Origin: an uncultured Candidatus Saccharibacteria bacterium
GTDB lineage: Bacteria > Patescibacteriota > Minisyncoccia > Minisyncoccales > Staskawiczbacteraceae
DNA: 64,000 nt
Direction of reading: 5' to 3'
NCBI GenBank assembly: GCA_964427585.1
Contig: CAYRVC010000001.1
Coordinates: forward strand, 189,846-253,845
Position numbers and translations under genes: made by a program. Below are positions 47,905 through 50,483 of the stretch, one piece after another; the first letter of the stretch is position 1, and every line of letters begins with the position of its first letter. Under the pieces are notes generated by a model, which worked only from the letters and a program-made list of their open reading frames with translations, was not told where the DNA came from and searched no databases.

Positions 47905-48094
47905 GGACGGCATTTCATCAATAGTTTCTTTTTAGAAACATCTTCGCAATAGCCGTCCATAATTCTTTGGGTAAAACACCTCCAGGATAGTTCCAAAACA
48001 CGCCCCATCTAGTTTTACCCAGAGAAATATATCAGAAAGAGCGAAACAAGCCACCTGAAGTTTTTTTAAAAACACAACACAGTAAGTTCCGCTC
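47905..48094 (-). ncRNA. three guide-loop hairpin modules (H1-H3) at the distal end of the array
   Basis: Outer stems are GGACGGC/GCCGTCC, TGGGTAAAAC/GTTTTACCCA and GAGCGAAAC/GTTCCGCTC (one G.U on the minus strand). Each encloses variable strands around a TA plus inner hairpin core. Confidence 0.6.
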
Positions 48095-48120
48095 TTTTTC
48101 AAAAAAAATAAAAGAACAAT

Positions 48121-48391
48121 GAGGGAACATGTGTTCTGTAGTGAATTCAATCACATTACAACTGAAGTCCCCTCTTTGGAAAAAACAATTATAAAAATCC
48201 CAATGACCAAACCCCAAACCCCAACCAAACCCCAAATCCTAAATCCTAAAACGTTTTAGGCCTTGGGATTTCATTAATTTTGTTGGGCATTGGACATTGG
48301 GATTTTGAGTTTTTCGTTTGCTTTCTCCAAAGAAGGGGCGAAACAATCTCGGATAAGTGCCATACAGCACAGAACCTCAGTAGTCTCGCCC
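48121..48391 (-). ncRNA. two-module unit (H5 + H4) downstream of the ORF, linker interrupted by a MITE-like element
   Basis: H4 is GAGGGAAC...GTCCCCTC (48121-48174), identical to the module at 49863. H5 is GGGCGAAAC...GTCTCGCCC (48336-48391). Confidence 0.6.
48194..48306. mobile_element. MITE-like palindromic element (AAAATCCCAATG... / ...CATTGGGATTTT termini, CCCAAA(C/T) heptamer arms)
   Basis: Terminal inverted repeats and a central TAAAACGTTTTA. A second copy lies at 62924-63033. Confidence 0.7.
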
Positions 48392-48411
48392 TTTTATTTT
48401 TTAGAACTGGG

Positions 48412-49788
48412 TTATTGCTGGTTTTCTTTTTCCAGTTTAACCCATTCCTTATATACCCATTCTACAAACTTTGTTATAGTGTGCCGTAGGGCCATTTTCA
48501 ATAAATGACCTTTGGTGTAGCGCTTTTTTTTACCTGGCTCGTTGCCGTCGTTTTCACCGTTTTCCAACGGTTCATCCGAATTTCCAGCGGCCTCTATTGG
48601 TTGAGGATATTTTTGCCATAAATACATTTTGTATTCAAACAATTTTCTGCCCCATTCAGTATCCGGCCTCCTGTTAAATTGTTCTGCAAGCAAGTATAGC
48701 GACTGCCTTGCTTCCGGAGACCAGTTAGCCTTTTCCCCAATCCCCTTTCTTCGCCTGGGAAATTGCCTTTCCTTCGGCCTGTCTCCGTATTTGCCGCCAA
48801 ACATGACATGGGCACCGCAAAATGCCTTTAACCGGGCTTTACCGTTGGGCGCCATAAAGCGCCTGATATCTCCGATGGAAGTTAAAATTCCGGCCGCGAT
48901 CCTTTCTCCGCAGCCTTCGATATCTTTAAAAATTTTCTCCCACACAGGAAGGCCTTGCACCGATTTTTTAAGGCCCTTCTCCGCTTCCTCCTCCTGTTTC
49001 CAGAGGTTTTGAAGAATAACATCCTTTTCCTGAGCTTCCTTGTAAACCTCGGGTAATTCTCCCTCTAATTCCCCATAGTTTCCTTCTTCGTCTAAAAATA
49101 CCCTGCCTTTCAGGGAATGCCACACTTGTTGCTGGCGTTTTTTTCTCTGTTCTTGAGCGGCCTGCCTTAAAGAAAGGGCTTCTCTTGCGCGTATTATTCC
49201 GCGGTCAACGGGCCTGATGCCATGGAATAAATAGGGCATTTCTTCAAAGATCTTAACTATGTTCAAGTGGTCTTCCTTTTTATCGCCCCCTCTCCGCGCG
49301 GCCAATTCCTGGGGAGAAAGGCAGTAAACGCAGGCTCCAACCCTGTCTCCTTCAATGGATAATTTTCCCGCAAAAATATATCCCGAACCGCCGAAAATCG
49401 TCACAACCTTGTCTTCTTTTTTCAATCCGTCGAATTTCACGGGCAAAGCGACAAGTTTTTCCGCTCTTTTTTTATTCTTTAAAATCCTAATATGGTCGGG
49501 ATTAATCCCTTTCATCTCCTCTACCTTTGTCAAAATTTCCCACTGGCACTGGTGAGGTCTTATGCCGCCGGGATTTTTTTCTTTGTCAAACCATTGGATT
49601 TTCTCATCCTGCCCGACCTTCCGCCATTCAACAGAAAACCTGGCTTTTGAAAAATCGTATTCGTCTGTTTCTGTCTTTAATTGGTAAACAATAATATTAT
49701 CGTTTTCCTTAATAGCAACCATTGTCGGTTTTGCCACGCCTTCTCTGGTTTTTTTTACACGGTGCATTATTGCGACAATCCGAGCCAT
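48412..49788 (-). CDS. IS110-family (DEDD_Tnp_IS110 + Transposase_20-like) protein, apparently catalytically degenerate
   Basis: AGGAGG lies 5 nt before the ATG at 49788. The C-terminal GCGERIAAGILTSIGDIRRF...LKAFCGAHVMFGGKYG...ARQSLYLLA matches the IS116/IS110/IS902 domain pattern. VVTIFGGSGYIFAGKL...KKEDHLN resembles the RuvC-like core. Confidence 0.7.
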   Translation of the reverse strand: MARIVAIMHRVKKTREGVAKPTMVAIKENDNIIVYQLKTETDEYDFSKARFSVEWRKVGQDEKIQWFDKEKNPGGIRPHQCQWEILTKVEEMKGINPDHIRILKNKKRAEKLVALPVKFDGLKKEDKVVTIFGGSGYIFAGKLSIEGDRVGACVYCLSPQELAARRGGDKKEDHLNIVKIFEEMPYLFHGIRPVDRGIIRAREALSLRQAAQEQRKKRQQQVWHSLKGRVFLDEEGNYGELEGELPEVYKEAQEKDVILQNLWKQEEEAEKGLKKSVQGLPVWEKIFKDIEGCGERIAAGILTSIGDIRRFMAPNGKARLKAFCGAHVMFGGKYGDRPKERQFPRRRKGIGEKANWSPEARQSLYLLAEQFNRRPDTEWGRKLFEYKMYLWQKYPQPIEAAGNSDEPLENGENDGNEPGKKKRYTKGHLLKMALRHTITKFVEWVYKEWVKLEKENQQ

Positions 49789-49799
49789 TCTGACCTCCT

Positions 49800-49842
49800 G
49801 CCGTTTTACGGCGCAAAGTTTGAGTTCCGCTACGCGCGGAAC
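49800..49842 (-). ncRNA. two short 5'-UTR hairpins next to the SD
   Basis: GCCGT-TTT-ACGGC (49800-49812) and GTTCCGC-TACGC-GCGGAAC (49824-49842). Confidence 0.4.
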
Positions 49843-49862
49843 ACGGGTTGTGAAAGAACAAT

Positions 49863-50002
49863 GAGGGAACATGTGTTCTGTAGTGAATTCAATCACATTA
49901 CAACTGAAGTCCCCTCTTTGGAATCCCGCCGTAAGCGGAGCTCTAAAAAAGGGGCGAGACAGTTATTGTTTAGTTTTTAACAAAAGCCTTGTAGTCTCGC
50001 CC
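49863..50002 (-). ncRNA. bridge-RNA-like two-loop unit (H8 + H7) immediately upstream of the ORF
   Basis: H7 is GAGGGAAC/GTCCCCTC (49863-49916). H8 is GGGCGAGAC/GTCTCGCCC (49952-50002). The linker has a CCGC-CGTAA-GCGG mini-hairpin. Confidence 0.65.
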
Positions 50003-50017
50003 ATAAATAAAAGAAAA

Positions 50018-50149
50018 ATGAGAGATAGGCACCGTATAGTGATGTTTAATCACACATCCGCTGAAGTCCCTCATCTTTTTTCAAAAAGAATGGGCGAATC
50101 AGTTATTGGGTAGTTCCAGAAAAGGAACACGGCTGTACAAGATTCGCCC
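50018..50149 (-). ncRNA. bridge-RNA-like two-loop unit (H10 + H9)
   Basis: H9 is ATGAGAGA/TCCCTCAT. H10 is GGGCGAATC/GATTCGCCC with inner hairpin GTTCC/GGAAC. Confidence 0.6.
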
Positions 50150-50168
50150 AAAAAACGAAAAGAGCAAC

Positions 50169-50308
50169 GAGGGAACAACGCCGTGCTAGTGATTAAATCA
50201 CATAGGAAGTTAAGTCCCCTCTTTGGAATCCCGCCGTAAGCGGAGCTCTAAAAAAGGGGCGAAACAGCTGCTACATAGTTATCAAACACCCAAAGCATAG
50301 TTTCGCCC
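50169..50308 (-). ncRNA. bridge-RNA-like two-loop unit (H12 + H11)
   Basis: H11 is GAGGGAAC/GTCCCCTC (same scaffold as 49863, different loops). H12 is GGGCGAAAC/GTTTCGCCC. The linker is identical to that of the 49863 unit. Confidence 0.65.
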
Positions 50309-50328
50309 ATAAACGAAAAGAGCAAAAA

Positions 50329-50445
50329 GATGAGACATGTTCATGCTAGTTTAAAAACACACTGACGATAGTCTCATCCTTGAAAAAACCAAGCGAACAG
50401 CCAGACCATAGTTTTTTTTAAAAACGCAAGATCGAAAGTTCGCTT
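50329..50445 (-). ncRNA. bridge-RNA-like two-loop unit (H14 + H13), promoter-proximal
   Basis: H13 is GATGAGAC/GTCTCATC. H14 is AAGCGAAC/GTTCGCTT with inner hairpin GTTTTT/AAAAAC. Confidence 0.6.
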
Positions 50446-50454
50446 CTGTGCATT

Positions 50455-50483
50455 AAGATAACATAAATAATTTTCTATGTCAA
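50455..50483 (-). promoter_or_regulatory. candidate promoter driving the RNA-module array and ORF
   Basis: On the minus strand: TTGACA (50483-50478), 17 nt spacer, TATCTT (50460-50455). The first module starts about 10 nt downstream. Confidence 0.45.

Follow-up and report, generated by a model that had tools for sequence, protein, structure and literature searches.

TIGR arrays and the Tas proteins that accompany them were defined by Faure et al. (Science 2025; PMC12045711), who described guide units (tigRNAs) in which each spacer is preceded by box C and followed by box D (UG), the C of box C pairing with the G of box D. The same study was the first to note, in candidate phyla radiation (CPR) bacteria, a TasR clade with an inactive RuvC domain on stem-loop arrays, which its authors speculated to be a possible intermediate towards box C/D small nucleolar ribonucleoproteins (snoRNPs); they also placed the Tas Nop domain next to IS110 and saw in the IS110 bridge RNA a likeness to two fused tigRNAs. 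A catalogue of 2,559 stem-loop arrays was compiled by Xu et al. (bioRxiv 10.64898/2026.09.09.750476), who reported that arrays can lie on either side of tas, that the tigRNAs of CPR TasR proteins carry a hairpin between the two spacers, that CUU motifs occur at processing boundaries and that stem-loop arrays are processed to single units. In their work, an 18-bp DNA site (9 + 9) is bound by CsTasR, which represses transcription while leaving the DNA uncut, and natural targets cannot, according to these authors, yet be determined. In CsTasR the first and second catalytic positions are occupied by R8 and V126; the protein has an insertion of ~80 residues between beta3 and beta4 and shows no cleavage in vitro, whereas TaTasR and TasH cleave DNA. 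Here we describe a locus of tandem RNA modules around a gene for a TasR protein in a 64,000-nucleotide stretch (hereafter the window) of contig CAYRVC010000001.1 (assembly GCA_964427585.1, positions 189,846 to 253,845) from an uncultured Candidatus Saccharibacteria bacterium. With a probability of about 0.8, we read this locus as a stem-loop type chromosomal TIGR-Tas system of a CPR bacterium, with a nuclease-dead TasR that would serve RNA-guided DNA binding and transcriptional repression. Systems of this kind are already described: published work covers the family and its stem-loop subtype, the clade of dead TasR proteins in CPR bacteria and a relative within the same candidate phylum.

Thirteen hairpin modules of 50-60 nt each span positions 47902-50447 on both sides of one minus-strand open reading frame (ORF). 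In transcript order, a promoter-like site is followed by eight tigRNA units, tasR and five further units. The locus sits between mraY and a murD-like gene, inside a cell-wall and division gene cluster (window 43959-54270), and the promoter-like site, located by a consensus scan, lies just past the mraY terminator at 50552-50525. The original prediction, which took the locus for a bridge-RNA-like array beside an IS110-family ORF, had placed the 13 modules correctly, and the stems and loop strands that it quoted read as written; the TTGACA-17-TATCTT site that it reported upstream of the first module is likewise present on the minus strand.

Read on that strand, the modules share one plan: a 5' arm, C-U-(A/U), the 9-nt spacer A, U-G and a short hairpin, then a second half composed of C-U-(A/U), the 9-nt spacer B, U-G and the 3' arm. 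When folded, a unit of about 54-60 nt has an outer stem, an internal loop that is symmetric and has one 9-nt spacer as each of its strands, and a short inner hairpin closed by the G of the box D UG and the C of the next box C. This is the published stem-loop tigRNA grammar of box C, spacer and box D, twice over. Box C is CUA or CUU in 26/26 cases and box D is UG in 24/26, the exceptions being CG as the first box D of tigRNA 13 and UA as the second box D of tigRNA 8. The spacers are exactly 9 nt long in all 26 cases; the variable strands of the original prediction are thus present, but not with the lengths of 9-12 and 10-12 nt given to them, and what it saw as 'TA ... A' flanks is box C (CUW) and box D (UG) read on the plus strand. 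The linkers between units are U-rich and contain CUU motifs.

A grammar scan of the window (C-T-W, N9, Y-G, a loop of 5-18 nt, C-T-W, N9, T-R, plus an outer stem) returned exactly the 13 modules above, all on the minus strand; elsewhere it gave two weak plus-strand matches only, the mean for shuffled sequence being 0.67. A covariance model built from the window scores the modules at 42-54 bits and the next best match in the window at 15 bits. Because this model finds nothing else above 15 bits, the modules are confined to the locus and none is hidden in the ORF; neither scan detected an intragenic tigRNA within tasR.

The outer stems differ between modules yet stay complementary. When the 12 distinct modules are cut to the same length and aligned, 92.9% of the cells at paired positions are paired; with the 3' partners slid 1-3 columns out of register, the value is 42-51%. 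Double-sided changes occur in 11 of 14 pairs, and none of 500 shuffles reaches the observed covariation score. For the outer stem alone, the corresponding values are 9 of 10 pairs with double changes and 91.7% of cells paired. The aligned modules are paralogs of one array, so that the covariation counts are non-independent events; the slid controls preserve this relatedness, however, and speak against an artefact. The compensatory covariation that had been read by eye is in this way borne out. The original prediction also assigned the RNA to the ORF strand from mismatches in imperfect stems, an argument that holds (six G.U wobbles among the core pairs on the minus strand versus one A.C, which is G.U on the plus strand) but is of modest strength; the stronger evidence for the strand comes from the asymmetric flanks and from the related loci.

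We took the start of tasR at ATG 49788, which gives a protein of 458 aa, because AGGAGG precedes it and the N-termini align across 30 homologs. A mechanical ORF of 494 aa from GTG 49896 would run through tigRNA 6 and was set aside in favour of this start. The product matches the NCBIfam model NF052498, 'TIGR-Tas system RNA-guided endonuclease', at 120.5 bits over residues 202-449, above the cut-off of 100, whereas the NCBIfam IS110 models NF033542 (22.1 bits, cut-off 140) and NF051857 (25.1 bits, cut-off 180) remain far below theirs. In Pfam, PF02371 (Transposase_20) is matched below threshold (16.1 bits against 21.3; E 0.015) and PF01548 is not matched. A family profile built from 30 members finds the TaTasR structure 9MTY at 5.5e-21 and IS621 (8WT6) at 0.0058. 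The AlphaFold model of the product (predicted local distance difference test score 86, predicted template modelling score 0.78) has 9MTY TasR as its best PDB match in Foldseek (E 1.7e-10 over 332 aligned columns), with TasH complexes next; the list of fold matches, which extends to E values of about 4, contains no IS110 structures. The database entry that matches the protein exactly is a hypothetical protein from a Candidatus Staskawiczbacteria metagenome-assembled genome. The IS110-family assignment made in the original prediction is accordingly not upheld.

The protein lacks the first two acidic residues of RuvC catalysis. Its N-terminus reads MARIVAIMHR, against IGIRHR in the family, at the place where RNase H-fold nucleases carry their first Asp, and position 8 in the alignment is M in the window protein and R in the family. 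Strand 127-131 (VVTIF, before GGSG; beta4 VVTIFGGSG) ends without an acidic residue, and the third-motif Asp (D173) is the only RuvC catalytic residue kept. In the AlphaFold model, ~85 residues are inserted between beta3 and beta4. With the first two acidic catalytic residues absent, the RuvC domain is predicted to be inactive.

The features by which a stem-loop TIGR-Tas system is recognised are found at this locus: a Tas protein with a TIGR-type Nop domain (coiled coil and C-terminal RNA-binding domain), tandem units with two short (8-12 nt) spacers, each having box C 5' and box D 3' of it, outer-stem flanks that are variable yet palindromic and replace edge repeats, and an array adjoining tas on the same strand in an association that recurs in relatives. 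The acidic RuvC residues that mark the nuclease-active TasR subtype, such as D11 of TaTasR, are missing. The modules agree item by item with the descriptions of Xu et al. and Faure et al. A CRISPR array, which would have cas genes and single spacers between nearly identical direct repeats of 25-36 nt, was considered and rejected, as the repeats are without sequence conservation (mean column identity 58%), each unit has two 9-nt spacers and there is no nearby cas gene. Rfam gave no match to a bridge-RNA or tigRNA family, either for the region at E <= 10 or for the whole window at gathering thresholds; its matches were two tRNAs and chance microRNA-like matches to palindromes only.

The coupling of such arrays to tasR extends well beyond the window. 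A scan of species-representative genomes yielded 80 loci encoding relatives of the protein, nearly all from Patescibacteria, among them the Buchananbacteria contig that Faure et al. named as an example of inactive TasR. Under the strict CUN grammar, the related loci yield 57 gene-strand units and one unit on the opposite strand. With the relaxed grammar, at least two units are present in 61/80 loci, and 334/340 units have 9-nt spacers. Box C is CGN (CGA/CGT/CGG) in 288/340 of these units and in the majority of CPR TasR loci, CUA/CUU being found in the lineage of the window and a few others. The covariance model built from the window gives 87 matches with E <= 0.01 in the 83 loci searched, none of which was used in its building, and 86/87 lie on the gene strand. 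Stems such as GGGCGAGA.../...UCUCGCCC recur in lineages whose proteins are just ~50% identical.

The closest relative, an ortholog from Hainich groundwater (L082) with a protein of 69% identity, has the gene order aspS, S11 peptidase, mraY, [4 units, tasR, 6 units], murL/murD-like, ftsW, murG; the murD-like gene is annotated there as fused to MurL-type domains. It has one-to-one counterparts of the window's scaffolds and of the order in which they lie, of the linker hairpin and of the promoter-like site, the last (L082/L089) standing in the same place as TTGACG-17-TATTTT. When eight pairs of units are matched by position, identity is 85% in the arms and a near-random 33% in the spacers (p = 2e-20). 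The notion of tandem modules with variable guide strands on a scaffold is in this respect confirmed, and guides turn over while scaffolds persist. Three more distant relatives (48-57% identity) have CGN box C and a different context, SecG, holin / tasR / UvrC/UvrA, which is conserved among the three. Because synteny is conserved between relatives, the locus is stably inherited within lineages and is not mobile.

Among characterised proteins, CsTasR of Candidatus Staskawiczbacteria is the nearest in kind. It comes from the same candidate phylum and shares with the window locus tigRNA units both 5' and 3' of tasR, variable palindromic outer stems, the inter-spacer hairpin, box C/D flanks, CUU linkers, an effective pairing length of 9 nt, a non-acidic first RuvC position (R8 in the family), the beta3-beta4 insertion of ~80 residues and a short C-terminus without the Y/H processing loop. 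It differs in length (547 aa, against 458 aa) and at position 8, which is Met rather than Arg in the window protein. The spacers of CsTasR are described as 10 nt with 9 pairing, whereas those of the window are 9 nt. The window TasR is ~38% identical to the other Staskawiczbacteria homolog that we retrieved (L074), and its box C is CUA/CUU whereas that of the wider dead-TasR clade is mostly CGN. TaTasR (Thermoproteota, 9MTY), from a dual-repeat system, shares the arrangement of RuvC, coiled coil and Nop domain, is the best structural and profile match, and likewise uses two 9-nt spacers between box C and box D per guide, with the same tandem-spacer logic of pairing to opposite DNA strands. However, its conserved edge and loop repeats and its 36-nt tigRNAs cut by the Tas Y/H loop have no counterpart in the window, where the units are longer and the stems variable and covarying, and its RuvC is active (D11) and cleaves DNA, whereas that of the window protein is predicted to be inactive.

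IS110 and IS621 (and IS1111 with its seekRNA) have a homologous RuvC-like plus Nop/Tnp arrangement and carry their guide strands in the internal loop of a stem-loop RNA, pairing with opposite DNA strands. In IS110, however, one RNA of ~180 nt holds two different loops (target and donor), an active DEDD set and a serine nucleophile are present and the element is mobile and multi-copy, whereas the window has 13 independent single-loop guides, a protein without that catalytic set, a fixed syntenic locus and no donor match. The box C/D s(no)RNPs (Nop5/Nop56/58) share the Nop-domain dimer and a pseudo-symmetric RNA with two guides bounded by box C/D, but the target is RNA in these particles and DNA in the characterised Tas systems. 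The boxes of the window are CUW and UG rather than the RUGAUGA/CUGA kink-turn (K-turn) boxes of box C/D small RNAs, and the locus has no fibrillarin or L7Ae partner. For the Nop5, fibrillarin and L7Ae partners of such particles, the analysis covered the neighbourhood, where the genes are mraY and the murD-like gene, and no search for fibrillarin or L7Ae was made elsewhere in the genome.

That the locus is an IS110-family RNA-guided recombinase with a bridge-RNA array, adjacent modules serving as target and donor loop, was the proposal of the original prediction, and it had grounds in the weak Transposase_20 and distant IS621 profile matches given above, in some homologs that do carry PF02371 and PF01548, in the resemblance of the internal loop to one bridge-RNA loop, as the TIGR paper notes, and in the two scaffold types that alternate in the upstream array. 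Against this stand the scores of the curated IS110 models (22-25 bits, for thresholds of 140-180), Tas proteins as the top structural matches, non-acidic residues at the first two DEDD positions and the place of the IS621 'ESGSS' serine stretch, which in the alignment lies opposite 'kDGRF' in the family and PKERQF in the window protein. The locus is present in a single copy in the window and has a syntenic ortholog, hence it is not mobile, and the bipartite matches expected of the loops were found for no guide pair, at the locus ends or at any other site in the window, at <=2 mismatches. Nor can modules be grouped into two-loop bridge units when five lie downstream and the ortholog has four and six, numbers that do not fit obligate pairs, and when processing to single units is published. 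The alternation with a period of 151-160 nt is real, but it reflects tandem duplication of two-unit blocks rather than two-loop RNAs. We therefore consider the recombinase largely refuted and highly improbable. What survives is the wider idea of a multiplexed RNA-guided system with a protein akin to that of IS110, in keeping with the placement of the Tas Nop domain next to IS110 (PMC12045711); the accompanying remark that no IS110 element with a multi-unit array was known is, as a claim of no precedent, out of date, TIGR-Tas having been published in 2025.

Chance juxtaposition of the ORF with generic structured intergenic repeats, such as repetitive extragenic palindromes, bacterial interspersed mosaic elements, hairpins resembling miniature inverted-repeat transposable elements or terminators, has in its favour that this genome contains dispersed palindromic elements, one of them inserted in the array. 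It is already refuted, with a probability close to nil: the modules occur nowhere else in the 64 kb, their grammar is asymmetric and strand-specific, they accompany tasR homologs in most of the 80 loci and on the gene strand in 86/87 matches, and their stems are kept while their spacers change. More weight, though still little, goes to two other functions for a genuine guide array. One is guidance to RNA, in which a scaffold like that of box C/D small ribonucleoproteins would bind or modify cellular RNAs such as rRNA or tRNA; the Nop domain and box C/D logic in common, the speculation of Faure et al. (PMC12045711) on an intermediate to snoRNPs, the want of a DNA target in the window and vertical inheritance inside a housekeeping gene cluster would all suit it. 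We find it improbable, given that CsTasR of the same clade binds double-stranded DNA in cryo-electron microscopy and causes guide-dependent transcriptional repression, that the modules are without K-turn boxes (RUGAUGA/CUGA) and no methyltransferase or L7Ae-like partner adjoins the locus, and that complete spacer turnover between orthologs is unexpected for guides to conserved rRNA. The other is active defence, with TasR as an RNA-guided nuclease that cuts invading DNA, and we hold it to be equally improbable. Spacer turnover between relatives would fit an arms race, TaTasR and TasH do cleave DNA and the NCBIfam name reads 'RNA-guided endonuclease', but the window protein has Met at position 8 (Arg in the family) and no acidic residue after beta4, CsTasR and PateTasR of the same kind of clade show no cleavage, and no plausible phage match was found for the two guides searched in IMG/VR.

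A repressive TIGR-Tas system with a nuclease-dead TasR, which we prefer, would work as follows. Transcription on the minus strand would start from the TTGACA-17-TGnTATCTT site at 50483-50455, and the precursor would be cleaved in the U-rich linkers that contain CUU. A TasR dimer would assemble on each tigRNA through the Nop domain, and the two spacers would pair, each with a different DNA strand, along a single contiguous site of 18 bp. Because the first two RuvC catalytic residues are absent, binding without cleavage is expected; the DNA would be left uncut and transcription blocked, as for CsTasR. Transcription, processing, DNA binding and repression are all proposed here by analogy with the characterised system. 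Vertical inheritance inside the cell-wall and division cluster hints at a host regulatory role rather than defence.

Several observations weigh against this assignment. No 18-bp target was found in the 64-kb window at <=2 mismatches when the 12 distinct guides were searched in both half-site orders, with gaps of 0-2 nt and on both strands, and at three mismatches there were 5 matches, versus 3.4 for scrambled spacers. Viral matches are at chance level, and the proposed role leans on analogy: in IMG/VR, exact 18-mers of tigRNA 8 and tigRNA 2, the two units covered by that search, were looked for in both orders and gave 0-2 matches each, and 18-mers are without statistical power in databases of this kind. 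Because these matches all fall in contigs of 54-69% G+C (39% in the window) and no second guide matched, we treated them as chance. The loss of RuvC activity is deduced from an alignment together with a predicted model, rather than by superposing structures residue by residue. The family name in NCBIfam includes 'endonuclease', which the window member probably is not. The promoter and processing sites are defined at consensus level only. Finally, a terminator-like palindrome lies between tigRNA 5 and tigRNA 4, so that expression of the four distal units may be poor or may depend on a promoter of their own.

The leader of tasR contains two hairpins (Table 1), the first of which has the form of a tigRNA inner element (box D UG, hairpin, box C). 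Both are kept in the ortholog through compensatory changes, the second reading GUCGC-UGAAA-GCGAC there, followed by AGGAGG. A UG-U...A-C hairpin occurs <=75 nt from the start codon in 51/70 tasR leaders, compared with 4.6% of coding-sequence windows and 9/70 leaders on the reverse complement as controls. In 46 cases the element is lone, that is, not inside a full module, and stands 12-64 nt from the start; in about half, the ribosome-binding site takes the position that spacer B would have. The box C type of the leader tracks that of the array, an association inflated by relatedness among the loci. In text searches of the two main TIGR papers, neither autoregulation nor an element in the leader came up. 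The element may serve autoregulation or mark a processing boundary; it is a tentative suggestion, with the odds against it, that TasR binds this mimic and so controls its own translation or marks the boundary between array and mRNA.

Comparison with the ortholog also indicates how the array has changed. The upstream array has eight units in the window versus four in the ortholog, and the downstream array five versus six. A 94-nt repeat (D1; 84% identical, spacing 305) lies in the upstream array, where stems of the GGGCGA type and the GAGGGG type alternate, and spacer B is identical at 7/9 positions between tigRNA 7 and tigRNA 9. The repeat, the alternating stems and the resemblance between these two spacers suggest that two-unit blocks were duplicated as the upstream array grew and that their spacers then diverged. 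The 34-nt linker with a small hairpin (GAGCUCCGCUUACGGCGGGAUUCC), of which there are two copies, always stands between a GGGCGA-type and a GAGGGG-type unit, and a related linker hairpin is present twice in the ortholog. A 71-nt exact direct repeat (48111-48181 = 49853-49923), which comprises tigRNA 4 or tigRNA 6 with flanks, brackets tasR; a recent duplication or gene conversion may lie behind it, and it could promote loss of tasR by deletion. A second assembly of the organism (L081) contains the repeat too; its contig stops within the array, and the array there is identical, with no micro-variation. In a metagenome search for the same scaffold with free spacers, a first pattern found nothing and a looser pattern found only the Hainich ortholog.

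Table 1 Features of the TIGR-Tas locus in the window, listed in transcript order
Feature	Position	Strand	Basis
Putative promoter-like site TTGACA, 17 nt, TG-n-TATCTT, 5' of the first tigRNA	50455..50483	-	consensus scan only
tigRNA 13 (first in the transcript), spacers TCGATCTTG / TGGTCTGGC	50389..50447	-	grammar scan; covariance model, 44.6 bits
tigRNA 12, spacers TCGTCAGTG / GCATGAACA	50327..50380	-	grammar scan; 45.4 bits
tigRNA 11, spacers TGCTTTGGG / TGTAGCAGC	50256..50309	-	grammar scan; 45.1 bits
Linker with small hairpin (AGAGCUCCGCUUACGGCGGGAUUCC), copy 1	50223..50256	-	in 94-nt repeat D1
tigRNA 10, spacers AACTTCCTA / GCACGGCGT	50167..50223	-	grammar scan; 45.8 bits
tigRNA 9, spacers GTACAGCCG / CCCAATAAC	50091..50150	-	grammar scan; 48.1 bits
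tigRNA 8, spacers CAGCGGATG / TACGGTGCC	50017..50075	-	grammar scan; 47.5 bits
tigRNA 7, spacers CAAGGCTTT / AACAATAAC	49951..50003	-	grammar scan; 48.3 bits
Linker with small hairpin, copy 2	49917..49951	-	sequence; repeat search
tigRNA 6 (= tigRNA 4), spacers CAGTTGTAA / CAGAACACA	49861..49918	-	grammar scan; 53.0 bits
Lone 'box D, hairpin, box C' element UG / UUCCGC-GCGUA-GCGGAA / CUC in the tasR leader	49822..49843	-	sequence
Second leader hairpin GCCGU-AAA-ACGGC, abutting the AGGAGG ribosome-binding site	49794..49812	-	sequence
tasR, 458 aa: RuvC-like N-terminal domain, predicted inactive (large insertion), coiled coil, Nop C-terminal domain	48412..49788	-	
tigRNA 5, spacers CTGAGGTTC / ATCCGAGAT	48335..48392	-	grammar scan; 48.9 bits
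Palindromic dispersed repeat between tigRNA 5 and tigRNA 4	48190..48310	-	RNA fold
tigRNA 4 (identical to tigRNA 6)	48119..48176	-	grammar scan; 53.0 bits
tigRNA 3, spacers ACTGTGTTG / CAGGTGGCT	48038..48095	-	grammar scan; 53.6 bits
tigRNA 2, spacers GATGGGGCG / TCCTGGAGG	47968..48021	-	grammar scan; 46.4 bits
tigRNA 1 (last), spacers TTGCGAAGA / TTGATGAAA	47902..47961	-	grammar scan; 41.7 bits
Perfect 25+25 nt palindrome at the distal array end	47830..47879	.	repeat/palindrome search

Other repeats lie within or close to the locus. The dispersed repeat between tigRNA 5 and tigRNA 4, of ~115 nt, has a further copy at 62925-63040 and consists of a CCCAAA-type arm, a AAAACGTTTT centre, a GGGTTT-type arm and a U-rich tail. 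Its RNA fold has an energy of -75.6 kcal/mol (z = -7.0), and it is absent from the ortholog. It probably does not belong to the TIGR system itself, and it could act as a terminator that splits the downstream sub-array. A tract of (GGGATTT)x4 lies at 16119-16141. Long perfect intergenic palindromes with arms of 24-29 nt and loops of 0-2 nt were found at 47830-47879, 42758-42805, 3223-3279 and 58779-58838, those at 3223 and 58779 being related to each other; they may be bidirectional terminators or protein-binding sites. The palindrome at 47830 closes the array and comes shortly ahead of a promoter-like site that belongs to the murD-like gene, and, because no U-tract follows it, to take it as the end of the transcript would be a guess only.

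As an instance of TIGR-Tas, the locus adds little to what has been published. It is a clean natural example, on a long contig and with a syntenic ortholog, of a stable chromosomal resident between mraY and murD rather than a mobile element. The recurrent leader hairpin offers a cheap and testable lead on the regulation of tasR. In the pair formed by the window and its ortholog, the scaffolds are conserved and all spacers have been replaced, and this comparison of arrays bears on two questions that the literature leaves open, how TIGR spacers are gained and what their natural targets are.

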